A DNA stretch of 43,572 nt from an uncultured delta proteobacterium (GTDB lineage: Bacteria > Desulfobacterota > Syntrophobacteria > BM002): the NCBI GenBank assembly GCA_963712115.1, contig CAVQGX010000052.1:1-43572 (forward strand). Reading direction: 5' to 3'. The notes under the pieces are model-generated. The model was not told the origin of the DNA and made no database searches. It worked only from the letters and a program-made list of their open reading frames with translations. Each line of letters starts with the position of its first letter. Position 1 is the stretch's first letter. Made by a program: the position numbers and the translations under genes. Shown here piece after piece: positions 2,774 through 41,380 of this stretch.

Positions 2774-3070
2774 GGGCATGGAGCATGGGGCATGGGGCAT
2801 GGGGCATGGAGTAAAGCGAGACGAGCGAGACGGGAGGTCGGGCGAGACGGGGAAAAAAGAAAGAGGTCAGAGGTCGGAGATCAGAGGTCGAAGGTCAGAG
2901 GTCAGAGATCAGATTGTAGATTGCGGATTGGGGAATTTGGGATTTGAGATATGGGATGTGGGATGTGAGATTTCGGATTGGCGGATGTTCAGCGATTTAA
3001 AAGATCAATAACCCATAACCCATTATCTTAACTTTAGGCATTTTAGACACTTTAGTTCATTTTAGGCATT
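2774..3070. repeat. Stack of six different short tandem arrays
   Basis: (GRGCATG)x5, GCGAGACG(G), (AGAGGTC)x7, AGATTGY/GRGATKT, (ATAACCC)x2 and (AYTTTAGRC)x4 in succession. Confidence 0.9.
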
Positions 3071-3087
3071 CAATACTGGAGCGTACC

Positions 3088-3492
3088 ATGACAAGCATTT
3101 TCCGAACTCTTTCTCTGGTTTTTGCAGCCGGATGTGTGGGCGCAGTGGCAAATAGCTTAATTGTCTGGCTTTTTGGTGATCTGGGTATAAATGCGGCACT
3201 GGGGGTGAAAATTGCGCCAAAACTGACACCTGCCTGGCTCTATCCCCGCATAGTCTGGGGCGGATTGTGGGGATTTTTGTTCTTGCTGCCCATACTCCGC
3301 AGTTCATTGCTGGCTCGCGGCCTCCTTTTCAGTCTGGGACCATCTCTGGTCATGTTCTTTGTGATCTTTCCAATGAAGGCTAAAAAAGGCATGTTCGGCC
3401 TTGACCTGGGGAGCATGACTCCGGTGCTGGTGCTATTTTTTAATGCAGTGTGGGGTGTGACCGCTGCGATATGGCTTAGATTTAGCAAATAG
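3088..3492 (+). CDS. Hypothetical membrane protein (about 4 TM)
   Basis: Hydrophobic 134 aa ORF with WLYPRIVWGGLWG and NAVWG; SD GGAG upstream. Confidence 0.8.
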   Translation: MTSIFRTLSLVFAAGCVGAVANSLIVWLFGDLGINAALGVKIAPKLTPAWLYPRIVWGGLWGFLFLLPILRSSLLARGLLFSLGPSLVMFFVIFPMKAKKGMFGLDLGSMTPVLVLFFNAVWGVTAAIWLRFSK

Positions 3493-3501
3493 GCGAATAA
3501 G

Positions 3502-3741
3502 ATCTCTCGCCCGAGCCCTGCGGGCTCTCGAGCCCTCAGAGGACTCAGAGAAAAAGATTGAGTGCACATACTCGGATCGCTTAAAAACTCCCGCCAAGGC
3601 GGGAGGTCCCGATAAAGCTTTAATGGGACAAAAAGGGGAGGACTTTATGCTTTTAAGCGATCCATGAATCGCTTGCTACATTGCCCAATTCATTTTGGTG
3701 TTTTTGAGTTCTCAGAGTTCTCCGTGATCTCTGTGAGAGAT
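3502..3741. repeat. MITE-like palindromic element
   Basis: Ends ATCTCTCGC / GTGAGAGAT. Internal perfect inverted repeat GGATCGCTTAAAA (3574-3586) / TTTTAAGCGATCC (3651-3663). Hairpins at 3588-3605 and 3606-3629. Confidence 0.6.
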
Positions 3742-3766
3742 TAGCAGGTAGGGGAGGGCACTATCG

Positions 3767-4023
3767 TTTTAGAGATTGCAGATTTCAGAATGCAGATTGT
3801 AGATTTGAGAAGGCATAGAGCATAGGGCATGGAGTCTGAGGTCAGAGGTCAGAGATCAATGATTTCCGATTGCGAACTGCGAGTTTTGTATTCTGATTCT
3901 TTAATTTCGAAATTCGAAAATAAAACGTTCGAAATGGTTAGCTACTGGCTGCTGGATTCTTTGATCTCGGATTGAAGAATCTATGCTTTCAAGCTTTTTC
4001 AATCTACAATCTACAATCTTAAA
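3767..4023. repeat. Nested stack of heptamer arrays abutting the lon stop codon
   Basis: Outer inverted arms AGATTGY-type (3767-3808) and CAATCTA-type (3999-4023). Inner arrays GRGCATR, AGAGGTC and TTCGAAA. Confidence 0.85.
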
Positions 4024-8023: not shown

Positions 8024-8245
8024 AGTAATTCTCTTAGTTGAAGTTCGACCAACCTTAGAGTATGCGCCGTATCTGCCTTTCTTTCAAAATCCAGGATTTA
8101 CTGCTGCAGAGATCATGCAGACTCACAAGTGGTGGCATCCATAAGTAAGTAACTCTTGATGCTCCGGCAGATGTCAACCTATTTATGGATCCCCTAGCCC
8201 GGATGTTTCATGAATTGCTGTCGCGAGACCATGAAGATGGGCGGG

Positions 8246-9016: not shown

Positions 9017-9024
9017 AACAAAAT

Positions 9025-9060
9025 GGTCATTGGGTCATTAGGTCATTAAGTCATTATGTC
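9025..9060. repeat. Octamer array (RGTCATTR)x4.5, downstream arm flanking the four-helix-bundle gene
   Basis: GGTCATTG GGTCATTA GGTCATTA AGTCATTA TGTC. Confidence 0.9.
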
Positions 9061-9148
9061 GTTTCATGATCCGCGAATGGGATCGTTTCATTTCGCCTTA
9101 ATTCATTCGTCACTAGGTCAATAGATCTAATCTTGTGGGTTTCAGTGA

Positions 9149-9517
9149 TTAAGTTCCCATATTACTTTTTCTCCCGATGGAATTAATATAGTTATTAAGC
9201 TTGAAGGCAAACGTATCCATTTCCGTCAGTATGGAACGAAAATCCTTAGGGTCAATCAGTCCTCTTCGTTGCGCTTTTTTTAGCCAGGTCACGGCTTCAT
9301 GCTGTGACCCCCTACTGTAGTAACAAAACTGCTTATTTTCCTTGTAGTAAAACCTCCCGAATCCTTCACTCAAATTAGCGGCCATGGAGTCAGTCGCTTT
9401 AACCAACTGCTTTCCCACCGTGTCTTTCGCAAAAAAGTCCCAACGAACAACAATTTCCCAGACTCGCTCGCCGATGTCCATGGCAAGCTGATAAACTTGT
9501 AGATCCTCCAGTCTCAT
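9149..9517 (-). CDS. Four-helix-bundle protein (23S rRNA intervening-sequence protein / Avd-like family)
   Basis: 122 aa with LEDLQVYQLA, QLVKATDSMAANLSEGFGR and F.YYSRGS..E motifs. Confidence 0.9.
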   Translation of the reverse strand: MRLEDLQVYQLAMDIGERVWEIVVRWDFFAKDTVGKQLVKATDSMAANLSEGFGRFYYKENKQFCYYSRGSQHEAVTWLKKAQRRGLIDPKDFRSILTEMDTFAFKLNNYINSIGRKSNMGT

Positions 9518-9539
9518 AACGGCGCCCCTTTCATCTCAC

Positions 9540-9575
9540 GACCTAATGACCTAATGACTTAATGACTTAATGACA
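9540..9575. repeat. Octamer array (GACYTAAT)x4.5, upstream arm, reverse complement of the 9025-9060 motif
   Basis: GACCTAAT GACCTAAT GACTTAAT GACTTAAT GACA. Confidence 0.9.
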
Positions 9576-9643
9576 GACTGTGCTTTTCGTTTTAACAGAC
9601 CCCGCACCGTTTACATTCCTCCGGATCGCACGGTTCTGTAAAC

Positions 9644-11329
9644 TTACCGGTTAGAGCCGGCCTGATATTCGTGCCAGAGATAGTCCTTGCTCAAGCCGTG
9701 ATCAATGAAGTCCCAAGGCAATAGCTCATCTCGCTCCCGCTCTCGATACACGTAGAATTCGGGGTTGAGATTGATTTTTTTCGTGGCCTTGGACCAATTG
9801 GAGTTTTGTTGCCCTAGTATGGCGAGCAGAGGTGCCAACCGCCGGTCACCGCGGGACAACAGCGCTTGAATGTAAGCCCAGCGAGGCACATCAGCATGTA
9901 CCTTCACATTGGCCACTGCTCCCAGTCCACGTTTCAGCTTTTTAATCCGCTGCTTCAAAACCGAGAGATCACAGAATGGCACCCACTGAAAGGGTGTAAA
10001 AGGCTTGGGCACAAATGAACTGACACTCAAGGTAATGGTACCCAAGCGCTTCTGCCCACGGCCAATGACCAGTTGCTCGTGCTTGATTTTTTTGACCAAC
10101 TTAATGATTGCCGTCATATCCTCCTCTGTTTCGCTGGGCAGTCCAATCATAAAATAGAGACGCAGGTTTGGAATGCCTGCGCTGACCACTGCCATTACCG
10201 AGGCAAGGATCTGCTCTTCAGTCAGATTCTTGTTTATTACTTGCCGCAATCTCTCGCTTCCGGCCTCGGGTGCTAGGGTCACAGTCTGGAGACCGCTTTG
10301 GCGGAGTGCATCGAGCATTGTGGGTGTGACGGAATCGGCTCGCAGTGATGAGACCGACAAACGTGTTCCAGCCTTTCTTAGTTGCAAACAGATGGCGTCG
10401 ATATCAGGATGATCAGAGACTGCTGAGCTTAGTAGGCCAATTTTTCCTCCCTGGGGAGACCGATCCAAGGCTGCTTGCACCACTTTGTTACCTTGTCGAT
10501 GACGCACCGGTCGGTAGACAAATCCGGCGGCACAAAAGCGACAGCCCCGGCCACAGCCCCTGCCGATCTCTACCAGCACCGTGTCGGAAAATTCCGTGTG
10601 AGGTGTGGTTATTATGGAGGTAATGGGGTCTTCACTCTCAATAGGTGCTGGTCTGGCTGAGATTCTCTTTGGGATATCTATAAGGGGCTCGCAAGAGGTA
10701 AGTCGGCCATCTGTGTCGTGCTCAACTCGGAACAAGGAAGGCACATAGGCGGAGGATACCCGCTGTGCAAGGTGAGCTAGCAGCTCTTCTCTCGAAAGTC
10801 CATCATCTTGGCCTTCTTGCCAAGCGGCAATGAAATCCTCTAAAAAATTTTCCGCTTCGCCTAAAAGGAAGACATCTATAAAGGGTGCTATGGGTTCGGG
10901 ATTGAGGAAGGTGGCTACGCCGCCCGCCGCCACCAGGGGCTCGTGCTGGTGGCGGCGGGAGCTGTAGAGGCTCAATTTGCCGAGTTGCAGGAGGTGTACA
11001 AGGTTGGTGAAATCATTTTCAAAGGCCAGTGAAAAAGCGACAAGGTGGAAATCCGCCATGGGCCTCTGGCTTTCTACAGAGAGCGGTCCAGGACCCGAGC
11101 TTGCGGCGGCCATGTCCTCCGGTTCCGGTAAAAATAATCTCTCGCAAACTACATTGGGTAGCCGGTTGAGACGGTGGTAGACCGTCTGGAAACCCAAGTT
11201 GGACATACCCAGAAAGTAACGGTTCGGGTAAACCAGGGCGATTGGAATCTTGCCACCCCAGTCCTTGATGACCGTCCCGGTCTCGTCTGCCAGCCACTGC
11301 TTTAGTCTGCGTTGCAGTTGCCAAGACAT
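9644..11329 (-). CDS. B12-binding radical SAM protein
   Basis: RGCGRGCRFC (CxxxCxxC), YPNRY.LGMSNLG, APEAGSERLR and FVPKPFTPFQ motifs. Confidence 0.9.
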   Translation of the reverse strand: MSWQLQRRLKQWLADETGTVIKDWGGKIPIALVYPNRYFLGMSNLGFQTVYHRLNRLPNVVCERLFLPEPEDMAAASSGPGPLSVESQRPMADFHLVAFSLAFENDFTNLVHLLQLGKLSLYSSRRHQHEPLVAAGGVATFLNPEPIAPFIDVFLLGEAENFLEDFIAAWQEGQDDGLSREELLAHLAQRVSSAYVPSLFRVEHDTDGRLTSCEPLIDIPKRISARPAPIESEDPITSIITTPHTEFSDTVLVEIGRGCGRGCRFCAAGFVYRPVRHRQGNKVVQAALDRSPQGGKIGLLSSAVSDHPDIDAICLQLRKAGTRLSVSSLRADSVTPTMLDALRQSGLQTVTLAPEAGSERLRQVINKNLTEEQILASVMAVVSAGIPNLRLYFMIGLPSETEEDMTAIIKLVKKIKHEQLVIGRGQKRLGTITLSVSSFVPKPFTPFQWVPFCDLSVLKQRIKKLKRGLGAVANVKVHADVPRWAYIQALLSRGDRRLAPLLAILGQQNSNWSKATKKINLNPEFYVYRERERDELLPWDFIDHGLSKDYLWHEYQAGSNR

Positions 11330-12735: not shown

Positions 12736-12882
12736 TTAAAACATCTTCCCCAGCGGCACTTCACGAGCCCTTGCGTTGTAGCCGACGGGCGAAGAAGACA
12801 AACCCCGTATAGTCAGAACTGCATAACAGCCCATGCACGTGAAGAACATGGTAAGCACGAAGTAAAGGTCTGATTTGCTCAT
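12736..12882 (-). CDS. Putative 48-aa small single-TM protein between ftsA and ftsZ
   Basis: Strong SD GGGGAGGA before ATG. MSKSDLYFVLTMFFTCMGCYAVLTIRG... has one hydrophobic segment. Confidence 0.4.
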   Translation of the reverse strand: MSKSDLYFVLTMFFTCMGCYAVLTIRGLSSSPVGYNARAREVPLGKMF

Positions 12883-12946
12883 CAGATCCTCCCCCTGAGT
12901 TTGCAAGTGCTGTTTTAGTTGGTCACAAGACTTTCGCACTCTCAGG

Positions 12947-13110
12947 AAATTCGAAATCCAAAGCACGAAGCACGAAACAAATCCGAATGCTCGAAATTCC
13001 AATGACCAAAATAGTAGGAACTCGTTAATTGAACAACGGCAATTGTTTTGAACATTGGAGAATTCGAATTTGGAATTTGTTTAGTATTTCGATATTCGAA
13101 TTTCGAATTT
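12947..13110. repeat. Inverted TTCGAAA/AAATCC-type repeat element
   Basis: AAATTCGAAATCCAAAGCACGAA..ACAAATCCGAAT..CCAATGACCAAAA pairs with TTTTGAACATTGG..ATTTGGAATTTGTTT..TTCGATATTCGAATTTCGAATTT. Confidence 0.85.
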
Positions 13111-13177: not shown

Positions 13178-14404
13178 CTAGACCACATCCTTGAACCATT
13201 TCCGCATTCGATCGAGCAGCCGATTGAAGATATTATTCTGACGTATGCGGAAAAGTTTCTTTGGCTTGGATCTTCCCCCGTAGAGGACCAACCCCACCCC
13301 AGTGGCGTACATGGGATTCTTGACCACGTCCACCAAACCGCCGATGGAGATGGGTAAACCAGTGCGCACCGGCAGATTGAAAACCTGCTCGGCCAAATCG
13401 GCGAGACCTGGCAGCAAAGCTGAGCCGCCGGTTATCACCAAACCGGAGGCAACAAGGTCCGAATAACCAGAACGAAGAAGTTCCCGTTGAAGCAAGGAGC
13501 AAACTTCCTCAACTCGAGGCTCCAAAATCTCGCCTAGGATGTGCCGGCTAAGCACTTTTGGCTTGCCCCCTCCAACACTGGGAACCTGAATGGTCTCATC
13601 CTTCTGAATCATGGCGGTGAGAGCACAACCATATCGTTGCTTGATCTTTTCGGCCTCCTCCACCGGGGTTCTCAACCCCACAGCAATGTCGTTGGTGAGG
13701 TTGTTACCGCCCAGGGAGAGAACTGAGCTGTGGCGGATACTGTTTCCCGAGAAGATGGCCAAATCCGAAGTGCCACCACCAAAATCCACCAGTGCCACGC
13801 CTAATTTGCGCTCTTGTGGGTTCAGCACTGCTTCGGCAGAGGCGAGGGACTCCAGGACTATGTCGCAGACGTCAAGGCCGGCACGCTGGCAACATTTGAC
13901 GATATTCTGGGCGGAGGTAACCGCACCGGTGACAATATGAACCTTTGCCTCCAAACGCACACCGGACATGCCCAGTGGATTCTGAATGCCCCTTTGGTCA
14001 TCGATGATGTATTCCTGGGGGAGAATGTGAATTACCTCCCTGTCAAAGGGTATTGCCACAGCCTTAGCCGCATCGATCACCCGGTCGATGTCTTGCTGGC
14101 TTACCTCGCGATTCTTTACGGCGATGACACCATGGCTGTTGTGGCCTTGGATGTGACCACCGGCAATACCGGCGTATACCGCATTGATTTCGCAGCCAGC
14201 CATTAACTCTGCCTCTTCCACTGCCCGTTTGATCGAGTCCACTGTGCTTTCAATGTTGACTACTACACCTTTGCGCAATCCCTCAGAGGGGTGGGTACCA
14301 ATGCCCACTATGTCGATTCCCTCTGGGGTCAGCTCGCCGACTACGGCGCAAATCTTTGTGGTGCCGATGTCGAGCCCCACGATCAACGAATTATCCTTGG
14401 CCAT
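13178..14404 (-). CDS. ftsA: Cell division protein FtsA
   Basis: GLDIGTTKI, DFGGGTSD, AEKIK and ITGG actin-fold motifs. Confidence 0.98.
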   Translation of the reverse strand: MAKDNSLIVGLDIGTTKICAVVGELTPEGIDIVGIGTHPSEGLRKGVVVNIESTVDSIKRAVEEAELMAGCEINAVYAGIAGGHIQGHNSHGVIAVKNREVSQQDIDRVIDAAKAVAIPFDREVIHILPQEYIIDDQRGIQNPLGMSGVRLEAKVHIVTGAVTSAQNIVKCCQRAGLDVCDIVLESLASAEAVLNPQERKLGVALVDFGGGTSDLAIFSGNSIRHSSVLSLGGNNLTNDIAVGLRTPVEEAEKIKQRYGCALTAMIQKDETIQVPSVGGGKPKVLSRHILGEILEPRVEEVCSLLQRELLRSGYSDLVASGLVITGGSALLPGLADLAEQVFNLPVRTGLPISIGGLVDVVKNPMYATGVGLVLYGGRSKPKKLFRIRQNNIFNRLLDRMRKWFKDVV

Positions 14405-14406
14405 GT

Positions 14407-15267
14407 TTAAACTCCCTTTTTCTGAGGTCGGTCCTGCTTGTGAACCTTAAAATTGCCTCTGACAAAAACTCGGTTTCCGTGGCTCAGATCAATCCCCCGC
14501 AGCTGAGGATGAAGCCCTTTTTCCTCCAGATAGCGCAAAACCTTCTCCAGTCTGGCTATCTTGGGGCCATAATTGTCGCGGCCGAGATCGATCTGAATAC
14601 CGCCTCGGACTGTAAAAATGCTGAGCCCTTTATTCCTGCCCCAACGGATCTCCGAGATCAGCCTCCAGGGGAGTCTCAGCTGGCTCTCTTGGTAGAGATC
14701 TTCAATGAGAACAGTGAACTCCCGGGGAAGCTTGCACCCTGGAGCGAGAATTTCGGGGTCAAATCCGGTTATTATCGGCAAACCTGTATGTTCGCCCGGC
14801 GCAGCGCTGATGAAACATACGCCTCGATAGTCCATCAGGTAAAATTGGCGGCCTTTTACCAGGGCAACCGGCTTGCTTTCAACTATCTCTATACGAATCC
14901 GATCTGGAATCTCCCTGCTGATCACAGCAGAAGCTATCCAAGGATGGTTTGTGACCCTTTGTCTTACCCCGTCGAGATCGAGGGAGAGAATGTTCACCCC
15001 GGAAGGGATCTGCGCTTGTTGAATGACGGTCTGCGGGTCCAGCACCTCACAGCCGCTCACCTGGACACTAGTGACATTGAGGAGGGTTGAGGTGAGCAAA
15101 GTGCGGTAGCAGGCTACACACAGAGCACTCAATCCCGTAAATGCCAGGCAAATCAGAAAGAACTGCAAGATGGAGCGAAGTCGCCGTTGCAGTTCTCGAG
15201 GGTCGCCCCGGTAACTATTCTTTTTGTTTGAACCCTTGACGGTTTCGAATGGTAGCGAAATTTGCAT
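14407..15267 (-). CDS. ftsQ: Cell division protein FtsQ/DivIB
   Basis: Single TM, POTRA-like HPWIASAVISREIPDRIRIEI.E..P, C-terminal IDL, and position just before ftsA. Confidence 0.9.
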   Translation of the reverse strand: MQISLPFETVKGSNKKNSYRGDPRELQRRLRSILQFFLICLAFTGLSALCVACYRTLLTSTLLNVTSVQVSGCEVLDPQTVIQQAQIPSGVNILSLDLDGVRQRVTNHPWIASAVISREIPDRIRIEIVESKPVALVKGRQFYLMDYRGVCFISAAPGEHTGLPIITGFDPEILAPGCKLPREFTVLIEDLYQESQLRLPWRLISEIRWGRNKGLSIFTVRGGIQIDLGRDNYGPKIARLEKVLRYLEEKGLHPQLRGIDLSHGNRVFVRGNFKVHKQDRPQKKGV

Positions 15268-15314
15268 TAGTTTCTTACCCGTCTTGATTACCCGAAACCA
15301 TTTTGTTGCAAGTA

Positions 15315-16235
15315 CTAAGAGTTATGATGATTTCCCACGACTTCAATTTCCAGTTCGAGCTGCACGCCAAATTCCTGAGAAACCTTCTCCTGTGCGAGCT
15401 GAATCAAAGCAAGGATATCTCTGGACCGTGCCTGGCCTCGGTTGACAATGAAGTTGGCGTGCTCTGGGGAAATCTGAGCATCTCCAATGCGGACACCCTT
15501 CAGCCCAACTGCCTCGATGAGCCTGCCGGCAAAATCCCCTGGAGGATTCTTAAACACTGAGCCAGCAGAGGGAAGCCGCCATGGTTGTTTTTCTTTCCTG
15601 ACTACGAGCAAAGAACGAATCCTCTGGCGAATTTGCTCTCGAGAGCTTAGATTTAGTAGGAACTCCGCCTCTACCACCACGGACGCTGGTGGCAGTTCGA
15701 GCCTACGGTATGAGAAGGGGAGTTGGGCGCGCCCAAGCCTGACTAGAGCGCCGTCAGAGAGAAGCAGGTGCACAGCTTCACAGACATCAGCCATTTCCCC
15801 GGCATGGGTGCCGGCGTTCATTCGCAAAGCACCCCCCACCGACCCGGGTATGCCGGCAATAAACTCAAGACCACTGAGACTTTGCTGCAGGCAGAAGCGC
15901 AGTAGTCGGCTGAGACGCAACCCTGCACCCGCTTTGACTCTCCCCGAGGGGTCAATACATTCCACCTGCGAGAAACCTTCTTCCAGGCTGATGGCAACAG
16001 CCCTAATACCTGCATCCTGCACCAGAAGATTTGTTCCCCGGCCAAGGATGAAATAGGGATAATGGTTTTGATTCAGCACCTGGACGGCGGTTTGCAGCCC
16101 TGCCAGATCTAGAGGACGGAGGAGGCAGGACACTGGCCCCCCTACCCGCAATGATGTATGTCCTGCCATGATGATATCCCAGTCGGCTTCTACTCCGTCC
16201 AGGTGCTGAAGTTGTCTTTTCAGTTTATCTTCCAT
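15315..16235 (-). CDS. murB: UDP-N-acetylmuramate dehydrogenase
   Basis: LGRGTNLL, GIPGSVGGALRMNAG, SAGSVFKNP and HANFIVN motifs. Confidence 0.97.
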   Translation of the reverse strand: MEDKLKRQLQHLDGVEADWDIIMAGHTSLRVGGPVSCLLRPLDLAGLQTAVQVLNQNHYPYFILGRGTNLLVQDAGIRAVAISLEEGFSQVECIDPSGRVKAGAGLRLSRLLRFCLQQSLSGLEFIAGIPGSVGGALRMNAGTHAGEMADVCEAVHLLLSDGALVRLGRAQLPFSYRRLELPPASVVVEAEFLLNLSSREQIRQRIRSLLVVRKEKQPWRLPSAGSVFKNPPGDFAGRLIEAVGLKGVRIGDAQISPEHANFIVNRGQARSRDILALIQLAQEKVSQEFGVQLELEIEVVGNHHNS

Positions 16236-16311
16236 CAGACCATTTCAAATCGCTCATTTCTCATCGAGCGTCAGTCATGAGATTGATCTACGTGTACCAG
16301 TAACCGCCTCG

Positions 16312-16394
16312 ACTAGGCACTAAGCAGTAGGCACTAAGCACTACTTTCGCGTTTTCAACTGGTAGTGCCTAGTGCATAGTCCCTAGTGCCTAGT
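16312..16394. repeat. Inverted heptamer arrays (ACTARGC)n / (TAGTGCC)n overlapping the murC stop
   Basis: ACTAGGC ACTAAGC AGTAGGC ACTAAGC ACTA ... TAGTGCC TAGTGCA TAGTCCC TAGTGCC TAGT. Confidence 0.88.
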
Positions 16395-17795
16395 AATTTT
16401 TGGCAATGTGCTTCCTCCCCTTTCATGCAATCGTTTCAAAAACTCCTCCCCTGTTTGCCAGATGTTTCCTGCGCCGAGAGTTAAAACCACATCTTTCTCC
16501 CGTACTTCTTCCATTAGAACCGGAATAATATCCATGGCATTGGGGATGTACCTGATGTTGCCGTGGCCGTGTTCTTGTATGGCAGTTGCCAGCTTTTCAG
16601 CATGCACCCCGGGAATCGGGGGTTCACTGGCCGCGTAGATGTCAGTGACGAAGAGAACATCAGACTGATAAAAGGCAGTGGTAAAGTCCTCGAACAGCGC
16701 TTGGGTGCGGGTGAAACGGTGGGGCTGAAAGAGCACGTAGCGGCGATGGTCTGGAAAAGACTCAGCTATAGTTTTCAGCACTGCCTTTATCTCGTTTGGA
16801 TGGTGGCCATAGTCATCGATTACCGTGATTCCACTCACTTCGCCCTTAATTTGAAAGCGGCGCTGCACCCCAGTCATTCCTTTTAGTCCACGGCAAATAG
16901 CAGGGAAGGGGATTTCTAGTTCATGCCCTACGGCAACGGCCGCCAAGGAATTAAGCACATTGTGCCAACCGGGTATGGAAAGGTCGACTTTGCCTAACTC
17001 CTGACCCCGGTGGCAGGCGAGGTAAGAGGCATTGAGTCCATCGAAGGAGATCTCGCGGGCTTGGAAATCAGCCTGAGCTGAAAAACCGTAGGTAACCAGC
17101 CGTTTTTTGATCCTCGGCAGAAGGCTCTGAATGTTCTCATCCTCAAGACAAAGGATATTGAGACCATAAAAGGGAACCTGATTCATGAATTCAAGAAAAG
17201 TCTCTTTGATTTCATCCAGATCCTTGTAAAAATCAAGATGCTCGGTGTCGATGTTCGTAACCAGAGAGATGGTAGGTGAATAGAGGAGAAAGGTTCCATC
17301 ACTCTCGTCCGCCTCCGCCACCACGAAGTCACCCTTGCCAAGCTTGGCATTGGTTCCCCAGGCATTCAGACGGCCGCCAATCACCACAGTGGGGTCCAGG
17401 CCACCCTCGGCCAGTACCGTTCCCACCATGGAGGTGGTGGTGGTTTTTCCATGAGCTCCTGCCACCAGAACGGCATACTTCAGCCTCATAAGCTCAGCCA
17501 GCATCTCGGCGCGACGAATAACCGGTAGATGATAGTCTTTATTAGCAGCCAGAACTTCAGGGTTGTTAGAATCAATGGCCGATGAAACCACGACCACGTC
17601 AGCCCCGGCCACTTGGTGGGGTTGATGGCTGTAGTAGACAGTTGCCCCAAGATCTGCGAGTCTACGGGTGATTTCCGTCTCTTGCAGGTCGGAGCCGCTG
17701 ACCTGATGATCGAGGTTCAGGAGCAATTCAGCAATGCCGCTCATACCGATGCCACCGATTCCAACGAAGTGAATATGGTAAGAACGTTTGTACAT
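16383..17795 (-). CDS. murC: UDP-N-acetylmuramate--L-alanine ligase
   Basis: HFVGIGGIGMSG, GAHGKTTTT, EADESD, DDYGHHP and FQPHR motifs. Confidence 0.98.
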   Translation of the reverse strand: MYKRSYHIHFVGIGGIGMSGIAELLLNLDHQVSGSDLQETEITRRLADLGATVYYSHQPHQVAGADVVVVSSAIDSNNPEVLAANKDYHLPVIRRAEMLAELMRLKYAVLVAGAHGKTTTTSMVGTVLAEGGLDPTVVIGGRLNAWGTNAKLGKGDFVVAEADESDGTFLLYSPTISLVTNIDTEHLDFYKDLDEIKETFLEFMNQVPFYGLNILCLEDENIQSLLPRIKKRLVTYGFSAQADFQAREISFDGLNASYLACHRGQELGKVDLSIPGWHNVLNSLAAVAVGHELEIPFPAICRGLKGMTGVQRRFQIKGEVSGITVIDDYGHHPNEIKAVLKTIAESFPDHRRYVLFQPHRFTRTQALFEDFTTAFYQSDVLFVTDIYAASEPPIPGVHAEKLATAIQEHGHGNIRYIPNAMDIIPVLMEEVREKDVVLTLGAGNIWQTGEEFLKRLHERGGSTLPKITRH

Positions 17796-17857
17796 TTTTC
17801 AGTTTAGCCGGTTAAGAAAGTCGTCATAAAATCTAATAGTTAACAGTGTTTTTCAAA

Positions 17858-17897
17858 ATTTTAGACAATTTAGGCACTTTAGACATTTTAGACATTT
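17858..17897. repeat. Nonamer array (AHTTTAGRC)x4 overlapping the ftsW stop
   Basis: ATTTTAGAC AATTTAGGC ACTTTAGAC ATTTTAGAC; same family as 3031-3070. Confidence 0.85.
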
Positions 17898-19090
17898 GTC
17901 TTGCTCCGCCTCCCTCTGGTCTGCGGATTCAGCCAGTTCTCCCCGTGCCAGCCCTGGGAATGCTCCCTGGCGTAACTGTTTATATTCATCAGAATGCCCA
18001 TAGCTAATAAATTGGTTATCAAGGAACTGCCGCCGTAGCTTATGAATGGTAGAGGTAGCCCCTTGGTGGGCAACAGCCCCATGACCACAGCACTATTTAT
18101 AAAGGCCTGGAGCCCCACTGCCAGGGTCAACCCAAAAGCCAGGTAAGTTCCGAAGCGCTCAGGGGCCCTCAAGGCTATTTTGACGCCCTTGTAAATGAGC
18201 AAAGCATAAAGGAGGAGTACAACAGAGATCCCAAAGATACCGGTCTCTTCGCCAATGACGGCTAAAATAAAATCTGTATGTGGTTCAGGCAGATAAAAAA
18301 GCTTCTGTTGGCCGGAGCCCAGACCAACTCCAAGAGGACCACCGGAGCCGAGGGCCAATAGGGAGTGGAGGAGCTGAAAGCTAGTGTCACTCGGGTCCCG
18401 CCAGGGATTTAGAAAAGCGAGAAACCTCTCCAAACGGTAGCCCTTTTGGGCTATGGCAAGAGCCAGGAGGGGCACCACCGCAAACCCGGTGGCCAAAAGA
18501 TAGCGCAAACGGACACCGGCCACAAAAAGTAACAGAAAAGTCAGGACTGCAAAGGTTATGGCGGTTCCCAGGTCAGGTTGCATTACAACCAGACCAATAA
18601 AGACCGCAGAGACCAGGAGGTGCGGCGCGTAGCCAACCGAAAGTTCACGCAGCCGCTCTTTCTTTTTGGCCACAGAGTAAGATATGTAGATTATGAGTGC
18701 CAGCTTGGCGAACTCAGCTGGTTGGATGGAAATGGGCCCGAAACGCAGCCAGCGCCTAGCTCCCCCCACCCGGTGGCCCACTTGAGGCAAGAGCACAATT
18801 ATAAGGCTCAGCAGGGTGACACCGAGAATGACATATACGAGACGACGGTAGAGAACATATGGTAAATTCTTGCTAACGATGAGAACCCCAAGACCGAGCA
18901 GGGCAAATACAATTTGCCTTTTGACGAAATACATGCTGTCGCCAAAGCGCTCTTGGGCCATGATTGAACTGGAACTGTACAGCATCACCAGTCCGATACC
19001 TATGAGGGCGAGGGTTAGGAACAGAAGGACCAGGTCGTAACTGTTCTTATTCTTATGTTCGTTTCCTCCAGCCATTAAGTCATTTCTCAT
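17888..19090 (-). CDS. ftsW: SEDS peptidoglycan polymerase FtsW (start may be 19075)
   Basis: GARRW, QPAEFAK, QPDLGT, LPEPHTDFI and PFISYGGSS motifs. Confidence 0.96.
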   Translation of the reverse strand: MRNDLMAGGNEHKNKNSYDLVLLFLTLALIGIGLVMLYSSSSIMAQERFGDSMYFVKRQIVFALLGLGVLIVSKNLPYVLYRRLVYVILGVTLLSLIIVLLPQVGHRVGGARRWLRFGPISIQPAEFAKLALIIYISYSVAKKKERLRELSVGYAPHLLVSAVFIGLVVMQPDLGTAITFAVLTFLLLFVAGVRLRYLLATGFAVVPLLALAIAQKGYRLERFLAFLNPWRDPSDTSFQLLHSLLALGSGGPLGVGLGSGQQKLFYLPEPHTDFILAVIGEETGIFGISVVLLLYALLIYKGVKIALRAPERFGTYLAFGLTLAVGLQAFINSAVVMGLLPTKGLPLPFISYGGSSLITNLLAMGILMNINSYAREHSQGWHGENWLNPQTRGRRSKTNV

Positions 19091-20574: not shown

Positions 20575-20587
20575 CGGTCTCATTCCA

Positions 20588-23660: not shown

Positions 23661-23670
23661 TGTTTGCTCC

Positions 23671-25668: not shown

Positions 25669-25985
25669 TGCAGCACCACAATTTGGTCCTTGGTTGGCTG
25701 TTTCAGACCCAGCTGTTCGATAGCAATGCGCTGCACTCTCTCAGGAGCTTTGAGCCGGGCCAGTTCCAGGTGCAGTTTCTTGTTGTCATTCAGCAGCCGG
25801 GTGTGCAGCCCGTGGATGTCTGACAGTTGATAACCAAGCTCCACAACCTGGACTCGACACCAGACATAGCCAAAGCCGCTTAGCAAGAGCCAAAGAAAAA
25901 TAGCAATTATAGTGGTTAGCCTTCTCTGTCTCCACTTAGATGCTATTTTCTCTTTAGGTGATTTCTTTTTTTTCTTCTTGCTCAT
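25665..25985 (-). CDS. ftsL: Cell division protein FtsL
   Basis: Basic N-terminus, TM, coiled coil, RVQRIAIEQLGL, and position between rsmH and ftsI. Confidence 0.88.
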   Translation of the reverse strand: MSKKKKKKSPKEKIASKWRQRRLTTIIAIFLWLLLSGFGYVWCRVQVVELGYQLSDIHGLHTRLLNDNKKLHLELARLKAPERVQRIAIEQLGLKQPTKDQIVVLQ

Positions 25986-26946
25986 TCAGTTTTTGCTTTT
26001 CCACCACCCGGAGGCGGCCACTCCTCGCTCTGGGGTTTGCTTGTATCTCTGATTTCCCGGGGACTACTGGCTTTTTGTTAACTAGCTGCGCCAGGGGTCT
26101 CCCCTCACATTGGCAGATGGGCGAGCGAGCCGGGCAGCGACACGATCGGGCCCAGTTGGCGAAGGCTTGCTTTACCAACCGGTCCTCCAGGGAATGAAAA
26201 GAGACGATGGCTAATCGACCACCAGGCTTGAGCCAGTCTAAAGCTCCCTGAAGAAACGTCTGGAGGTGATCGAGTTCCCGGTTCACCGCCAATCTTAGGG
26301 CTTGAAAAGTGCGAGTGGCCGGATGTCGCTGCCGACCCCTCTTACCTGCTGGAATAGCTCTGTAAACCACTCTGGCCAAACGGTCGGTGGTTTCTATGGC
26401 CTCCTCATCTCGAGCTCTGACGATGTGGCGGGCGATTCTTCGATGCCACCGCTCCTCGCCGAAATTCCGGATTATTGCAGCCAGTTTGTCCTCGCTCAAA
26501 GTGTTGACCAAGTGGGCTGCAGTGTTCTTCTCCCGGGTGTCCATGCGCATATCCAAGGGGCCAGCTAGGTTGAAGCTGAATCCCCTTGCAGCCTCATCCA
26601 CCTGGAAAGAAGAGAGTCCGAGGTCTAGGAGAATGCCGTCCACTGCCTGGATATGCAACTGGGCCAATACCAAACCAATTAGGGCAAAATTCTCCTGGAC
26701 AAGGACGAGCCGCTCCTCGTAAGACTGCAGGTTCGAGCGCGCCTTAACCAAAGCCTTCTCGTCCCAATCTATGCCGATTAGCCGGCCGTCAGGAGCTGTT
26801 TTTTCCAGGATGGCCCGCGCGTGGCCACCACCACCCACAGTGCCATCCACAAAGAATTTTCCCGGAGTGCAGCGGAGATATCTAATGACCTCATCTAGGA
26901 GAACTGGCTTGTGCTCCTGCAACACGCTCACCACCGGGCATGTCAA
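25954..26946 (-). CDS. rsmH: 16S rRNA m4C1402 methyltransferase RsmH (MraW)
   Basis: HKPVLL, DGTVGGGGH, DLGLSS.Q, PLDMRM, SFHSLEDR and NPRARS motifs. Confidence 0.97.
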   Translation of the reverse strand: MTCPVVSVLQEHKPVLLDEVIRYLRCTPGKFFVDGTVGGGGHARAILEKTAPDGRLIGIDWDEKALVKARSNLQSYEERLVLVQENFALIGLVLAQLHIQAVDGILLDLGLSSFQVDEAARGFSFNLAGPLDMRMDTREKNTAAHLVNTLSEDKLAAIIRNFGEERWHRRIARHIVRARDEEAIETTDRLARVVYRAIPAGKRGRQRHPATRTFQALRLAVNRELDHLQTFLQGALDWLKPGGRLAIVSFHSLEDRLVKQAFANWARSCRCPARSPICQCEGRPLAQLVNKKPVVPGKSEIQANPRARSGRLRVVEKQKLNEQEEKKEIT

Positions 26947-27024
26947 TCCTAAATTTTAACCCCTCATCGAACGTTACGATGCGGGGCAGTTAACAAAAGA
27001 ACTAAGGGTTCTTCAGGCCTAACC

Positions 27025-27172
27025 GGAAAAACGGAGGCGCGGCGGCACGGCAAAAAACGGTCTGCTGCGCTGTTCATTTTTTTTGGTCCGTGAAGCCCCT
27101 GTTGTCTTCACCCGCCATAATCCTTTCGTTAATGGTTTAGGTTACTCCGCACCGCCGCGCCTCCATTTTTCC
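27025..27172 (-). ncRNA. Candidate structured cis-RNA in the mraZ-rsmH intergenic region
   Basis: 26-bp stem (27147-27172 with 27025-27050) that is fully paired on the minus strand using 3 G.U wobbles. Confidence 0.55.
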
Positions 27173-27241
27173 TCGTCGGTGCCTCCCCACCGATGAAGGG
27201 GAGGAGGTAACTAGTTGTCAAAGAATCTTTATTCCGATTTA

Positions 27242-27682
27242 TCAGATTCCTAGCTCGGCTAGGGTAGCGGTAATTTGAGAAAAATTATCATGGGCTCTCT
27301 TGATTTCTTCATCCCAAAAGTCCTTACTCCAGACCTCGAAACTTCTGAGCATGCCAGCCAGTATCACCTCGCGCTCCAGCGAGGCGTGTTCCCTCAGGGT
27401 TTGGGGAATTAGAACTCGACCTTGTTTGTCGAAGCTGCACTCGGTGGCACCAGAAATGAAAAACCGCTGGAAGGCCTTCACGTCCTGACGAACCAGAGAC
27501 AGTGATCCTAGCTTTTCTTCGATTACTTCCCACTCTTGTAAAGGATAGGCAATCAGGCAGCGGTCAAGGTTGGTGATGACGAAACGGTCATCATAGCGGG
27601 TTTTGAGGATGTCTCGAAACCGTGTAGGAATGCGGATACGTCCCTTTGCATCCAGGGTATGTATTGAGCGGCCCCTGAACAT
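27242..27682 (-). CDS. mraZ: Transcriptional regulator MraZ
   Basis: MFRG..HTLDAKGRIRIP..FR and a second DKQGRVLIP repeat. Start set to MFRG (SD GGAG). Confidence 0.97.
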   Translation of the reverse strand: MFRGRSIHTLDAKGRIRIPTRFRDILKTRYDDRFVITNLDRCLIAYPLQEWEVIEEKLGSLSLVRQDVKAFQRFFISGATECSFDKQGRVLIPQTLREHASLEREVILAGMLRSFEVWSKDFWDEEIKRAHDNFSQITATLAELGI

Positions 27683-27703
27683 GTGGACTCCATGAGATGA
27701 CAA

Positions 27704-27773
27704 AATTGACACTTTTGACCACTTTTAACCACTTCTTGACACCCTTTATACAGATCTAACCACTGAATGTCAA
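27704..27773 (-). promoter_or_regulatory. dcw promoter with MraZ-type direct repeats
   Basis: TTGACA-17 nt-TATAAA (27773-27745), followed by the 10-nt-period repeats AAGTGGTTAA AAGTGGTCAA AAGTGTCAA. These resemble the GTGG/TGGG repeats bound by MraZ in other bacteria. Confidence 0.8.
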
Positions 27774-30446: not shown

Positions 30447-30668
30447 CAAATCCGAATATCGATCCGCCGGAGGCGGACTAAACAAAGTCAAGCTGGATGT
30501 GAGATGTGAGATCTGAGATATGGGATACTGAATACCGAGATAAAAGTTGAATCTCACATCACATATCGCACATCCCACATCTTTTACTCAATATTTGTTT
30601 CGGATTTCTCCTTCGGAGTCCCCACCCTGCGGGCGGGGCCCCGGTTTCGTGCTTCGGATTTTGGATTT
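30447..30668. repeat. Nested inverted repeat element
   Basis: Outer AAATCCGAA-family arms interrupted by mini-hairpins. Inner (RGATRTG)x5 at 30495-30529 and (ATCNCAY)x4 at 30551-30581. Confidence 0.85.
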
Positions 30669-31831: not shown

Positions 31832-31892
31832 TGACAGCCTCCTTCCAGGTCAGATTTCAATGGCTTTGCCGGTAAAGATGAAGAGTGTTTCT

Positions 31893-32043
31893 GGAGTACT
31901 GGAGTAAGTATCATTTATGATTTCAGATTGCTGATTGCAGATTGAGGTTGAATGCATTCCATTCCACTAGGTTCTAAGCCCTTAAATCTGGAATCTACAA
32001 TCTAAAATCTAAAATCGCTGAACTTTATTACTCCAGCAGACTC
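31893..32043. repeat. Nested inverted arrays (GGAGTA outer, GATTKCA/AATCTA inner)
   Basis: GGAGTACTGGAGTAA ... GATTTCA GATTGCT GATTGCA GATTG ... AAATCTG GAATCTA CAATCTA AAATCTA AAATC ... TTACTCCAG. Confidence 0.8.
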
Positions 32044-33689: not shown

Positions 33690-33797
33690 GGAGTATTGGA
33701 GCAGTGGAGTATTGGAGTAGTAAAGGAATGGAATCTATAATGTTGCAGCAAGCTTAGGGTTTAACAACACTCCAGTACTCCAGAACTCCAACACTCC
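33690..33797. repeat. Inverted octamer arrays (GGAGYAKT)x4 / (ARHACTCC)x4
   Basis: GGAGTATT GGAGCAGT GGAGTATT GGAGTAGT ... AACACTCC AGTACTCC AGAACTCC AACACTCC. Confidence 0.9.
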
Positions 33798-33998
33798 AGA
33801 GCCTGCCGACTCGGTAAAAGCATAGGCCACAGATATTGGCTCCTATCCTTGAATGTTTATGGAAATACCTTGCTCTTCGAGACAAAAGTCCATAAAATGC
33901 GGGAATACCGAAGAAAAATACCTTAATTGAGCTAAAATTGAATTAGGGCTTATCCGTTAACTTTCGATTGAGCGTTATAGCTTAATCGAGGAAATAGC

Positions 33999-35789: not shown

Positions 35790-35800
35790 GGAGTATCGGG

Positions 35801-36131
35801 ACTAGGCACTACAGGACGACACGGGGACACGGAGAAACGGAAACGGAGAGAGTGCTAAGCACTTAGGCGAGACGTGAGGTCGGGCGAGACGGGCGAGACG
35901 AGGATTTGAACGCGGAAGTCGGAACGCGGAACGTGGAATTCTTTTCTGTACTGATGGCCAACGGGCTAAACCGGCCAAACTGGCTCAAACGGCCAAACAG
36001 GCAGAGGACAGAGAAGATGTTGGAGGTTCGAGGTTAGAGGTTTGAGGCAACAAATCTGACGACGCAAATGAAGGTGCCTCCAACCTAAAGCGGAGCGCTC
36101 CTCCAACCTCCAACTCTATGCTCTATGCTCT
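35801..36131. repeat. Stack of at least seven different short tandem arrays
   Basis: ACTAGGC, GGACACGG, GGCGAGACG, GGAACGC, GGCCAAAC(N), GAGGTTN with inverted CCAACCT, and CTCTATG. Confidence 0.9.
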
Positions 36132-36700: not shown

Positions 36701-36887
36701 AGGTCATTAGGCTTCGCCGTCATTACGCCCTGCTGTCATTTGGGCTTACAGCCCGTCATTTATTGCCACTCTTCTCCGGCTTTATTCGGACTAATCGACC
36801 GTTATCGGGTAATATGATGACCTACTATGAGTGACAGCGAAGCGTAGTGACGGCCACGTTAGTGGCCAAATGACTATAAATGACATT
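36701..36887. repeat. Gene-less inverted GTCATT/AATGAC arrays with mini-hairpin spacers
   Basis: GTCATTA-GGCTTCGCC-GTCATTA-...-GTCATTT-GGGCTTACAGCCC-GTCATTT ... GTGAC-AGCGAAGCG-TAGTGAC-GGCCACGTTAGTGGCC-AAATGAC. Confidence 0.85.
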
Positions 36888-38278: not shown

Positions 38279-38373
38279 GCGAGACCAGCTAAACTGGCGA
38301 GACGGGGGAATAGTCTACTGTGTTTTCATCCACGTCTCACTCGACCTCCAGTCTCGCACGACCTCCCGTCTCG
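38279..38373. repeat. Inverted GCGAGAC-family arrays
   Basis: GCGAGACC..GGCGAGACGGG ... CGTCTCACTCGACCTCCAGTCTCGCACGACCTCCCGTCTCG. Confidence 0.75.
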
Positions 38374-39189: not shown

Positions 39190-39192
39190 GCC

Positions 39193-40026: not shown

Positions 40027-40401
40027 ATGAAAAGGAAAGTTCTGTTTCTGACACTGGTGCTGGTTCTGGGTTTCGCCGCGTTGGCTTTTGCGGCAGAGGC
40101 GACGGAAGCTGAGAAGGTTATGGGTCTTAGGTTCTTCCTGTACTCTGCCACGGCAGCTGGTTTCTCCATTGCCATCTCTTCTATCGGCTGTGGTCTTGCC
40201 CAGGGAATCTCCATTAAGAGTTCGGTGGAAGGCGTTGCCCGCAATCCCGAGGCCTCTGGTAAAATCACTGTGACCATGATGATCGGTCTGGCGATGATCG
40301 AGTCCCTTTGTATTTATACCTTGGTTATCTGCCTGATCCTGATCTACGCAAACCCGGTGTCCAAGCTCATCCAGGGTTTTGTGGGGCTAGTTGCCCACTA
40401 G
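40027..40401 (+). CDS. atpE: Fo ATP synthase subunit c with an N-terminal signal-like extension
   Basis: ARNPEA loop and IESLCIY with the ion-binding Glu. Confidence 0.95.
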   Translation: MKRKVLFLTLVLVLGFAALAFAAEATEAEKVMGLRFFLYSATAAGFSIAISSIGCGLAQGISIKSSVEGVARNPEASGKITVTMMIGLAMIESLCIYTLVICLILIYANPVSKLIQGFVGLVAH

Positions 40402-40425
40402 TAGCTAAACTGCGGATAAACGGCC

Positions 40426-40457
40426 GGGGGATTGATCAGGAAGTTGGTCAATCCCCC
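40426..40457 (+). other. Stable stem-loop after atpE (mRNA stabiliser or attenuator; no U-tail)
   Basis: GGGGGATTGATCA-GGAAGT-TGGTCAATCCCCC. Confidence 0.6.
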
Positions 40458-40516
40458 TGTCACCCTCTAAATCGAGATCGGCGTGACCGCCGATGTTACA
40501 ACAGGATCGTGAGGTT

Positions 40517-41152
40517 ATGAAGTTCGCTAAGATTCCCATGGCCACGATCAACCGGCTGTCTATCTATTTGAGAAATCTAGACGAATTGATGACCAATGAT
40601 GTCGAGGTGATCTCTTCAGAGCGCTTGGCCAAGCAGTGTGGGGTGAATCCAGCCCAGATTCGTAAGGACCTGGCGTACTTCGGTGAATTTGGAGTGAGGG
40701 GGGTTGGCTATAGAGTCAAGGACCTCTACTCTCAAATCAAGGAGATACTCGGTCTCGATCGCCCGTGGAACATGGCATTGTTCGGAGTAGGCAATCTGGG
40801 TTCAGCCCTTATCCGCCATGCCAACTTTTTAAAGCATGGATATCGCTTTGTGGCTGCCTTTGATTTGGATTCTGCAAAAATCGGCAAGAGGCTGCCCAAT
40901 GGCCTTGTCATCGAGCACGTTGACCGCTTTGAGGAATTAGTAAAAGAACGCAACGTTGAAATGGGCATTATCGCTGTGCCGCCTGCGTCCGCCCAGAGTG
41001 TGGCAAACCAGCTCATTCTTGCTGGAATCAACGGAATTTTGAATTTCTCTCCGGTTCAGATCCAGGTACCTGACTGCTGTCGAGTGGAAAACGTAGATTT
41101 CTCAATCAAGCTAGACAATCTCGCTTACCATATTTCTTCGACCAGCACCTAA
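40517..41152 (+). CDS. rex: Redox-sensing repressor Rex
   Basis: IP.ATINRLSIYLR, QIRKDLAYFGEFG.RGVGY, GVGNLG.AL and ILNF motifs. Confidence 0.96.
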   Translation: MKFAKIPMATINRLSIYLRNLDELMTNDVEVISSERLAKQCGVNPAQIRKDLAYFGEFGVRGVGYRVKDLYSQIKEILGLDRPWNMALFGVGNLGSALIRHANFLKHGYRFVAAFDLDSAKIGKRLPNGLVIEHVDRFEELVKERNVEMGIIAVPPASAQSVANQLILAGINGILNFSPVQIQVPDCCRVENVDFSIKLDNLAYHISSTST

Positions 41153-41229
41153 ATGGCCCGCCAACCGTCAGGTGACCAAAGCCTTCCGTGGGTGGCGCGA
41201 TCCGTGTGGTCTGCGATCCACGATTATCG

Positions 41230-41380
41230 GGTCATTTGGCTTCGCCGTCATTAGGCCTTTCGGCCGTCACTTATGGTCATTTGTAGTCAATTGCCTTCGG
41301 CGTCATTCATGGTCGCTCATTTTTTCATGACAATAAATGACAGCGAAGAGCAGTGACAGCGTAGCGTAATGACCTAGTGA
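41230..41380. repeat. Gene-less inverted GTCATT/AATGAC arrays with mini-hairpin spacers
   Basis: GGTCATTT-GGCTTCGCC-GTCATTA-GGCCTTTCGGCC-GTCACTT..GCCTTCGGC-GTCATT ... AAATGAC-AGCGAAGAG-CAGTGAC-AGCGTAGCG-TAATGAC. Confidence 0.85.

Follow-up and report, generated by a model that had tools for sequence, protein, structure and literature searches.

Short tandem-word arrays at gene junctions of an uncultured deltaproteobacterium: association with a four-helix-bundle gene family and likeness to 23S rRNA intervening sequences

The window analysed here is the entire 43.6-kb contig C52 in the genome of an uncultured deltaproteobacterium (G000; 4.9 Mb in 70 contigs, GC 0.489). At 18 of its gene junctions it carries tandem arrays of 7-9-nt units, hereafter called words, and at one of these junctions a small four-helix-bundle gene of the PF05635 family lies between two inverted arrays of the same word. 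Similar arrays, most of them without a gene, are dispersed over the whole genome. We lean towards the explanation that they are the arms of genome-wide stem-loop elements whose build resembles that of 23S rRNA intervening sequences, comprising both gene-carrying cassettes and gene-less derivatives. The observations established here and on which this explanation draws are the architecture of the cassettes, the pairing of protein subfamilies with words, the order of the arms, the turnover of sites, the decay of the gene, bursts in copy number, and the lack of a detectable reverse transcriptase.

The cassette of the window is located between a radical-SAM and an RNase-H-like gene. Its own gene (9149-9517, minus strand) codes for a protein of 122 residues that matches the 23S_rRNA_IVP family (PF05635, E 5e-23; TIGR02436, E 5e-22). 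It is flanked by an array of GGTCATTA in 4.5 copies (9025-9060), which is the 3' arm in the direction of the gene, and by the inverted 8-mer array in 4.4 copies (9540-9574), which is the 5' arm; both arrays were found with Tandem Repeats Finder (TRF). In the predicted minimum-free-energy fold of the cassette RNA, the closing stem is formed by the two arrays (z -3.0). The structural model of the protein (pLDDT 94) superposes on XCC0516 (2gsc; TM 0.89-0.95) and also on BT_0352, and its resemblance to Avd is weaker (4dwl; TM 0.74-0.84).

This architecture recurs well beyond the window. The genome G000 contains 14 PF05635 matches. Decay is visible in seven of them, three being interrupted by in-frame stops and four reduced to fragments. 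Six of the 14 lie between inverted arrays that belong to a single word family, the word being different in each case. By comparison, only about 40 of the 4368 genes called in G000 by a crude caller of our own (79.6% coding) are bracketed by same-word arrays. The FtsZ protein of G000 is 80-97% identical to those of about 15 uncultured genomes labelled Deltaproteobacteria or Syntrophobacterales, which are referred to as sister genomes. The flanks of all 43 PF05635 genes listed for them (15 genomes, 40 loci) were inspected, and 40 of these genes are bracketed on both sides, four of them by short or degenerate arrays, while two are one-armed and one lies at a contig end. The arms of the sister cassettes are inverted tandem 7-9-mers spaced 340-610 nt apart. 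Among distant relatives, 17 of 20 loci were classified (L124, L136 and L140 were left out) and 12 of the 17 are bracketed. Bracketing was also found for six of seven genes sampled from 31 plasmid matches, namely those on plasmids of Nostoc flagelliforme, N. punctiforme (pNPUN02), Oscillatoria nigro-viridis, Leptolyngbya BL0902, Calothrix brevissima and Azospirillum lipoferum; no bracketing arrays were seen around the PF05635 gene of the Pseudanabaena PCC 7367 plasmid. An earlier note on this DNA, made from the window alone, had taken the four-helix-bundle locus for the gene-carrying form of the arrays, and the counts in G000 and in the sister genomes bear this out. Many of the PF05635 matches lie a few hundred bases from contig ends, so that word arrays seem to break short-read assemblies, and PF05635 genes are probably undercounted in draft genomes.

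Genes for GxxExxY proteins (PF13366), which are PD-(D/E)XK nucleases, form a second cassette class. There are five in G000, one at C46:9413-9763 and four on one contig (C31:145239-229663). Three of them are tightly bracketed by inverted runs of 8-9-mers, 384-393 nt apart, and one is loosely bracketed, in keeping with the proposal of the earlier note that genes of this type might be flanked as well. Other kinds of cargo were sought among 17 bracketed G000 genes that do not code for four-helix-bundle proteins. They represent 16 unrelated domain architectures (RapZ, RadC, dUTPase and others, with two HAD-hydrolase paralogues) and are therefore regarded as chance neighbours of common words.

The words of the arms follow the relatedness of the proteins. 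The ortholog of the window protein in G007 (83% identity) has GGTCATTA arms as well. A longer unit that contains GTCATTA flanks the relatives at 67-71% identity, and those at 35-44% identity are flanked by unrelated words. Similarly, for a G000 protein whose arms consist of GCATGGA (contig C18), the same word is found at 82% identity, GCATAGR at 70-74%, GCGCATA at 68%, and unrelated words below 41%. The protein of the AGAGGTC cassette is accompanied by AGAGGTC-type words at 92-95% identity, on both sides in G003 and as a single upstream array in G010, and by other words at 56-61%. An alignment of 37 proteins yields the same grouping of subfamilies and words. Paralogs with related words were found at separate loci of one genome in G001, G005 and G011, indicating that gene and arms were duplicated together in the past. 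The AGAGGTC-type protein of G000 is 50-62% identical to many plasmid proteins of Nostocales, Oscillatoria and Leptolyngbya, and thereby closer to them than to most paralogs in its own genome; this sequence comparison suggests that the gene was transferred between phyla.

Many of the most frequent words of G000 are also arm words of cassettes in the clade (ACTAGGC, AGAGGTC, GCATAGR, GCGCATA, CAGGTKT, GCATGGA, CAGCAGG, AAACGGT and CAGGAGT). The idea that each motif family belongs to a different paralog was correct in that each subfamily has its own word, but dispersed arrays also occur where the genome has no paralog to match them. Among 16 genomes, an ACTAGGC-type protein occurs only in G005, and yet matches to the ACTAGGC pattern are most numerous in G000 (185), followed by two chromosome-level genomes, G010 (163) and G008 (155), all three of which are without such a protein. 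Arrays hence persist or spread without their paralog in residence. G010 has a single PF05635 gene in all, yet several abundant word families. The abundance of AGAGGTC fits the presence of the gene in part, as the gene is found in two of the three richest genomes but not in G014, and the GGTCATTA word is nearly confined to the cassette itself. Matches per genome range from 2 to 205 for the AGAGGTC pattern and from 1 to 185 for the ACTAGGC pattern, with 0 for the reversed-pattern controls. Word families thus differ up to hundredfold among sister genomes, in a burst-like manner. The link between array density, scored in 13-kb ftsZ loci, and PF05635 counts is weak (10 of 17 as against 11 of 33, in a hand tally over 50 related genomes with a small sample from each).

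On the scale of the G000 assembly (completeness 94.4%, contamination 6%), TRF returned 4711 rows, including 2115 of period 7, and the arrays amount to 2.6% of the genome. An order-3 Markov copy of the genome gave 667 rows, 79 of them of period 7, which makes the period-7 excess 27-fold; no marked excess over this control was found for periods 10-13. The period-7 arrays are fully intergenic in 1811 of 2115 cases (86%) and 154 lie fully inside the crude gene calls, so that the earlier remark that no arrays occur deep inside open reading frames (ORFs) is nearly right but too absolute. About 30% of the 3820 intergenic regions carry an array, the shares being 787 of 2705 for co-directional, 195 of 557 for convergent and 174 of 558 for divergent gaps. 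A vocabulary common to distant sites had been noticed in the window; across the genome, 2097 arrays draw on 257 of about 1170 possible canonical heptamers, the commonest classes being ACTAGGC (144 arrays), ACCTCTG, which is equivalent to AGAGGTC (120), and AAATCCG (103). The number of copies per array has a median of 3.9 and peaks at 4.x (787 arrays, against 460 at 2.x, 594 at 3.x, 145 at 5.x and 48 at 6.x), in a distribution whose lower end is censored by the score threshold of TRF.

Where two arrays of the same word lie less than 60 nt apart, they are inverted in 175 cases and direct in 11; at short range, the inverted pairing that the earlier note had described is thus the rule. The order of the arms is constant, as read by eye in 14 of 14 close pairs from the four word families with at least two pairs, and the cassettes of those four families have the same arm order as the hairpins, which supports the common descent of hairpins and cassettes. 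A more general rule, by which the G- or purine-rich arm would lead in every case, is obeyed by most families. GTCCGTG, AATCGTTCA and GCCAGTTTA break it or give a tie, and the rule was replaced by that of a fixed order per word family.

The junctions themselves turn over. In the window, the ftsA/ftsZ junction contains a hairpin of TTCGAAT/AAGCACG-type words (12940-13110), the centre of which is swapped or absent in relatives and in public contigs. At this junction, 14 of the 16 genomes share a conserved 3' part. Three genomes have no arrays in the 5' part, and in the others it is occupied by GGAATTGA-type arrays, one of several different hairpins, or a 618-nt composite, which makes at least four fillings. 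At the radical-SAM/RNase-H-like junction the cassette is present in the window and in G007, while G014 has a solitary AATGACCT arm with unrelated arrays and no gene, and G001 and G010 have other small hairpins. Thus, as the earlier note had anticipated, the same junction may be full, empty or differently filled in close relatives, and there is no conservation even among species whose FtsZ proteins are 92-97% identical. Variation is also seen in the public sequencing runs, for which the data, those of RNA libraries included, consist of assembled contigs only and allow no inference on transcription: one contig has one 8-nt unit fewer at 9552, another joins 9019 to 9662 and so skips the whole cassette, and many alternative joints occur in the ftsA/ftsZ hairpin. 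In three of the four runs the contigs cover 9086-9628 thinly, but since depth was taken from contigs this is given no weight. Copy numbers differ between the arms of orthologous cassettes.

In the explanation that we favour, the complete form of the element is a cassette of about 0.5 kb, in which a small gene is preceded by a 5' arm of about four tandem 7-9-nt words and followed by a 3' arm in which these words are complementary. Usually the gene is of the four-helix-bundle type (TIGR02436/PF05635); in the second class it codes for a GxxExxY PD-(D/E)XK nuclease. Gene-less hairpins, stacks and solitary arrays, which together far outnumber the complete form, would represent reduced or decayed forms. 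Located at gene junctions, including those within operons, the elements would be co-transcribed with their neighbours and fold into stems of 30-45 bp, and over the time scale that separates sister species they are gained, lost, replaced, and resized unit by unit. They may be selfish, and they might spread as DNA, one possible route being recombination between same-word arrays through arms of about 30 nt, with the help of the nuclease in one of the classes. Their stems may be processed in RNA, as those of rRNA intervening sequences are. The earlier note had similarly seen in the arrays the footprints of repeat-bounded elements that hit gene boundaries; the cassettes, the pairing and the turnover agree with that view, but not the reliance on matching paralogs nor the templated writing of repeats that it had added.

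Several findings weigh against this explanation. Most arrays are solitary (about 3015 arrays, as against about 175 close inverted pairs), and at gene-scale distances the inverted same-word pairs do not outnumber the direct ones (96 against 144 at 500-3000 nt). The two cassette pairs whose flanks were aligned both lie at orthologous sites, which points to vertical descent rather than transposition; no target-site duplication was seen and no movement step was observed. Decay of arrays from cassettes was demonstrated for only a few of them. The gene calls are crude, and the classes assigned to arms in relatives were read from repeat-finder output, with no computed statistic. Processing of the stems by RNase III would be by analogy with Coxiella only. 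Its gene, rnc, was not found in G000, where its whole neighbourhood is missing from the assembly, and the chromosome-level G010 is without rnc and still rich in arrays. In the clade, rnc is present in 11 of 16 genomes, and G014 retains a C-terminal fragment only; in G010 (C1:54.6-70.5 kb), by comparison with locus L184 of G003, the flanks of the ancestral rnc locus are now inverted and about 11 kb apart. The genomes in which rnc is missing (G000, G010) or fragmentary (G014) are the richest in arrays for the two words counted, but the rnc-positive G003 and G008 are nearly as rich, which weakens a link between the loss of rnc and the abundance of arrays.

It is also conceivable, though not probable, that the arrays form a regulon, that is, that they are binding sites of multimeric proteins, with pentamers of the four-helix-bundle proteins reading about five copies of their own word in RNA or DNA and with the flanking sites serving autoregulation. 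The match between protein subfamily and word family is in line with this, and so is the peak of array length at 4.x units, which accommodates five short cores, although the lower range of copy numbers is censored. The predicted structure fits pentameric XCC0516 and also Avd, which is part of an RNA-protein complex. For the paired tandem 7-9-mers of Geobacter metallireducens, a role as targets of unidentified global regulators was suggested (PMC2700814). On the other hand, junctions that vary between species with nearly identical FtsZ proteins are unlike those of a regulon, and word families are abundant where no matching paralog resides, as in G010. In addition, the pairing of protein and word may be plain co-inheritance, since both aligned cassette pairs are orthologous. 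A related and more doubtful proposal is that the four-helix-bundle proteins are ring-shaped pentameric readers that recognize one 7-9-nt unit per subunit, with a word proper to each subfamily, and that they mark or mobilise the arrays. If true, this would amount to a natural, diversifying protein-nucleic-acid code, and would account for arrays of about 4.4 units, with their five cores, as well as for the excess of heptamers in bacteria.

To a similarly low degree we credit the possibility that the arrays are RNA elements of the host with a generic role in operons, as stabilising stems, processing sites or partial terminators, comparable to the REP and BIME sequences, and that the genes are mere passengers. 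Their placement between cistrons, with six in the dcw cluster, argues for such a role. So do the folds of the window hairpins, which in eight cases out of eight are better than the mean of shuffled sequences (z -2.1 to -6.5), and the presence of arrays in about 30% of intergenic regions, in similar shares whatever the orientation of the neighbours. The like share in divergent gaps nevertheless argues against a function at 3' ends, no U-run follows the stems in the eight folded stretches, and neither the presence nor the sequence of the arrays is conserved at orthologous junctions; the occurrence of one gene family in the loops would also be left unexplained.

That the arrays are ordinary microsatellites, generated by replication slippage at random intergenic seeds, is very unlikely. 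The loss of exactly one 8-nt unit in a public contig and the unequal copy numbers of orthologous arms are what slippage would produce, but it does not account for an excess that is marked at period 7 but not at periods 10-13, for a restricted vocabulary common to several genomes, for the predominance of inverted over direct close pairs, for an arm order fixed in each family, or for the tie of the arrays to one gene family; the earlier note had already judged slippage insufficient. Finally, it is hardly credible that the repeats are written by templated synthesis, with a reverse transcriptase and an Avd-like four-helix-bundle protein, in the manner of telomerase or of diversity-generating retroelements: the modelled protein has the Avd fold, and the G-rich word makes up the 5' arm on both strands in most families (by eye), as would fit the extension of both 3' ends at a break, but a search with the RVT_1 profile, positive in control genomes, gave no match in G000 or in four chromosome-level relatives (G008, G010, G012 and G015), two of them array-rich, which speaks against retroelement-type writing and against the most speculative claim of the earlier note.

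Within the window, TRF produced 56 rows, at the places where arrays had been noticed before (2774, 2816, 2862, 2925-2979, 3008, 3033, 3773-3858, 4000, 9025, 9540, 12961-13110, 16312/16363, 17858, 19080-19150, 22055, 30496/30551, 31891-32016, 33690/33769, 35818-36131, 38329 and 41336), and the sites at 22030, 35801, 36701, 38279 and 41230, which it missed, were seen by direct reading. The 18 junctions with arrays agree with the 17 or so loci counted earlier, the sites at 33254 and 30447 falling outside the comparison, and six of them are within the dcw cluster (mraZ to ftsZ) or at its head, so that arrays do occur within this operon, as had been claimed. Beside the ftsA/ftsZ hairpin described above, the murC/murB junction contains an ACTAGGC array, a 19-nt loop and the inverted array (16312-16394; fold z -6.5). 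The ftsW/murC junction has the 9-mer ATTTTAGAC in 4.4 copies (17858-17897, TRF), the murD/ftsW junction arrays of TCATTTC and GCATCCA (19080-19150, TRF), and the murE/murF junction GTCATT words followed by an array of the 8-mer CCGCGTCC (22030-22089, TRF and direct reading); a period-10 and a period-21 array lie upstream of mraZ (27706-27748, TRF).

Elsewhere the arrays are often stacked. Between a TrmO-like gene and a small ORF (2774-3070, TRF), arrays of GGGCATG, GCGAGACGG, AGAGGTC, AGATTGY/GGATTTG, a 21-nt GGGATGTGAGAT-type unit, ATAACCC and TTTAGGCAT abut one another, and the convergent gap before lon (3767-4019, TRF) holds arrays of AGATTGC, GCATAGA and GTCAGAG, TTCGAAA words, and then the inverted partner CAATCTA. 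A further stack (35800-36131, TRF and direct reading) consists of ACTAGGC, GACACGG/GAAACGG, GCGAGAC, GAACGCG, an 18-nt GGCCAAAC-type unit and AGAGGTT, followed by the C-rich partners CCTCCAA and CTCTATG. Hairpins are formed by a GATGTGA array, a loop and an ATCACAC array (30496-30581; fold z -4.3), by arrays of CTGGAGTA and GATTGCA with an inverted AAATCTA array (31891-32016; z -3.8), by the 8-mers GGAGTAGT and ACTCCAGA in a divergent gap (33690-33800; z -4.9), and, more weakly, by GCGAGAC words, a loop and inverted GTCTCGC-type 17-mers (38279-38373; z -2.1). Two gene-less hairpins belong to the GTCATTA-containing type. The arms of the first (36701-36885, direct reading) are the longer unit that flanks four-helix-bundle genes in sister genomes, and the second (41230-41373; z -4.0) is built from the 16-mer family.

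The genes of the window are otherwise ordinary, with TrmO-like, lon, hsp20, RNase-H-like and radical-SAM genes, a dcw cluster on the minus strand (mraZ, rsmH, ftsL, ftsI, murE, murF, murD, ftsW, murC, murB, ftsQ, ftsA and ftsZ), and past it a gene for a CLC channel together with ahbB, atp genes and uvrA. No match was obtained when the window was scanned with Rfam and for tRNA genes. The dcw cluster (13178-27712) is without mraY and murG; an MraY-like gene is found elsewhere in the genome (C20:18121-19227), where it is also flanked by arrays. The ftsA/ftsZ gap also encodes a hydrophobic peptide, in a small ORF of some 43 codons (approximately 12760-12895, minus strand) that 14 of the 16 junctions compared have retained immediately before ftsZ. 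In the window this ORF contains two extra bases (12807-12808) that are absent from the contigs of all four public runs and represent either a frameshift or an assembly error. A dispersed palindromic element that is not built from words has a copy at 8193-8243 and others at locus L096 and downstream in locus L160; one metagenome gives it a summed contig depth of about 14,000 and numerous loose ends, and it probably belongs to a REP-like family.

Among known systems, the closest in architecture are the S23p intervening sequences of Coxiella burnetii and Leptospira, in which a PF05635 ORF subject to decay lies inside terminal inverted repeats adjoining tandem heptamers (PMC4990558). The intervening sequence of C. 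burnetii 23S rRNA is described there as having an S23p ORF, a 28-bp terminal stem and two to three tandem heptamers that vary between strains. The cassette of the window differs from these in its location, between protein-coding genes and not in a 23S rRNA helix, in that the entire arm consists of tandem words, and in numbers, a genome having about a dozen cassettes and thousands of arrays without a gene. Excision by RNase III is reported for the Coxiella sequence and would apply here by analogy only.

Intergenic heptamers in inverted pairs, with repeat lengths that vary between sister species, were described for GGGAATC in Xanthomonas, at about 186 intergenic sites with 70-75 convergent inverted pairs, and for GGGGAYT in Nostoc (Rehm et al. 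2015, PMC4692102). That work, which also names the long heptanucleotide simple repeats of cyanobacteria, deals with one word family per genome, interprets it as a G-quadruplex, and in its accessible text draws no link to a gene family; in G000, by contrast, the words number in the hundreds, and the majority could not form quadruplexes. XCC0516, the solved structure nearest to the window protein, comes from Xanthomonas strain ATCC 33913, which was analysed in the same study (PMC4692102). In Geobacter metallireducens, paired "global regulator binding sites" are found at 24, 21 and 8 loci. Each member of a pair has three to five tandem 7-9-mers, and the two members are on opposite strands at a variable distance (Aklujkar et al. 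2009, PMC2700814). One such pair lies inside the proBA operon, and the pairs are absent from the sister species; they were interpreted as IHF/HU-type sites, and the main text mentions no four-helix-bundle or S23 gene (PMC2700814). The TAACTGA repeats of marine Beggiatoaceae are likewise intergenic tandem heptamers, in 2-6 copies and with a patchy distribution across phyla, while relatives have shorter, repeat-free intergenic regions (MacGregor 2015, PMC4679880). Unlike the arrays of G000, they consist of a single word, are nearly all direct, and face the downstream start codon, and a role in translation was proposed for them (PMC4679880). The resemblance of PF05635 to Avd has been pointed out (PMC10053308); with Avd of diversity-generating retroelements (4dwl, 8ub7) the window protein shares the fold at 8-12% sequence identity, and no reverse transcriptase accompanies it here. 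PF05635 genes have also been reported within cas loci (PMC3936711). A literature search that covered neither subscription journals nor supplements found no paper, the Coxiella observation apart, in which PF05635 genes are connected with tandem arrays at their flanks.

As dispersed intergenic copies able to form hairpins, the arrays resemble REP, BIME and MITE palindromes. The latter have a conserved unit of 20-40 nt or more with defined ends and, in the case of REP, an associated RAYT transposase; the arms here are runs of interchangeable words that vary in copy number and enclose dissimilar loops. The arrays can be mistaken for those of CRISPR loci, from which they differ in that their units abut without spacers. 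In metagenomes they seem to break assemblies, many cassettes lying at contig ends, and since they mark hypervariable junctions they could be of use for strain typing. The STRR sequences of cyanobacteria, described since 1990, are tandem heptamers that occur in several families per genome and are intergenic and dispersed. The G000 arrays have the properties of intergenic heptanucleotide repeats, with head-to-tail units of about 7 nt in few copies and the commonest words at more than a hundred loci each, and the four-helix-bundle genes on the Nostoc and Calothrix plasmids sampled here are flanked by heptamers of the STRR kind. To our knowledge, no origin or function has been established for the intergenic heptamer repeats of cyanobacteria, Xanthomonas, Geobacter and Beggiatoaceae, and we know of no function outside retroelements for the S23p or 23S rRNA intervening-sequence protein family, of which two structures have been solved. 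The arrays described here belong to this known and unexplained class of repeats, and what is added is their tie to one gene family; if the heptamer repeats and the S23p family do belong together, both puzzles become testable.

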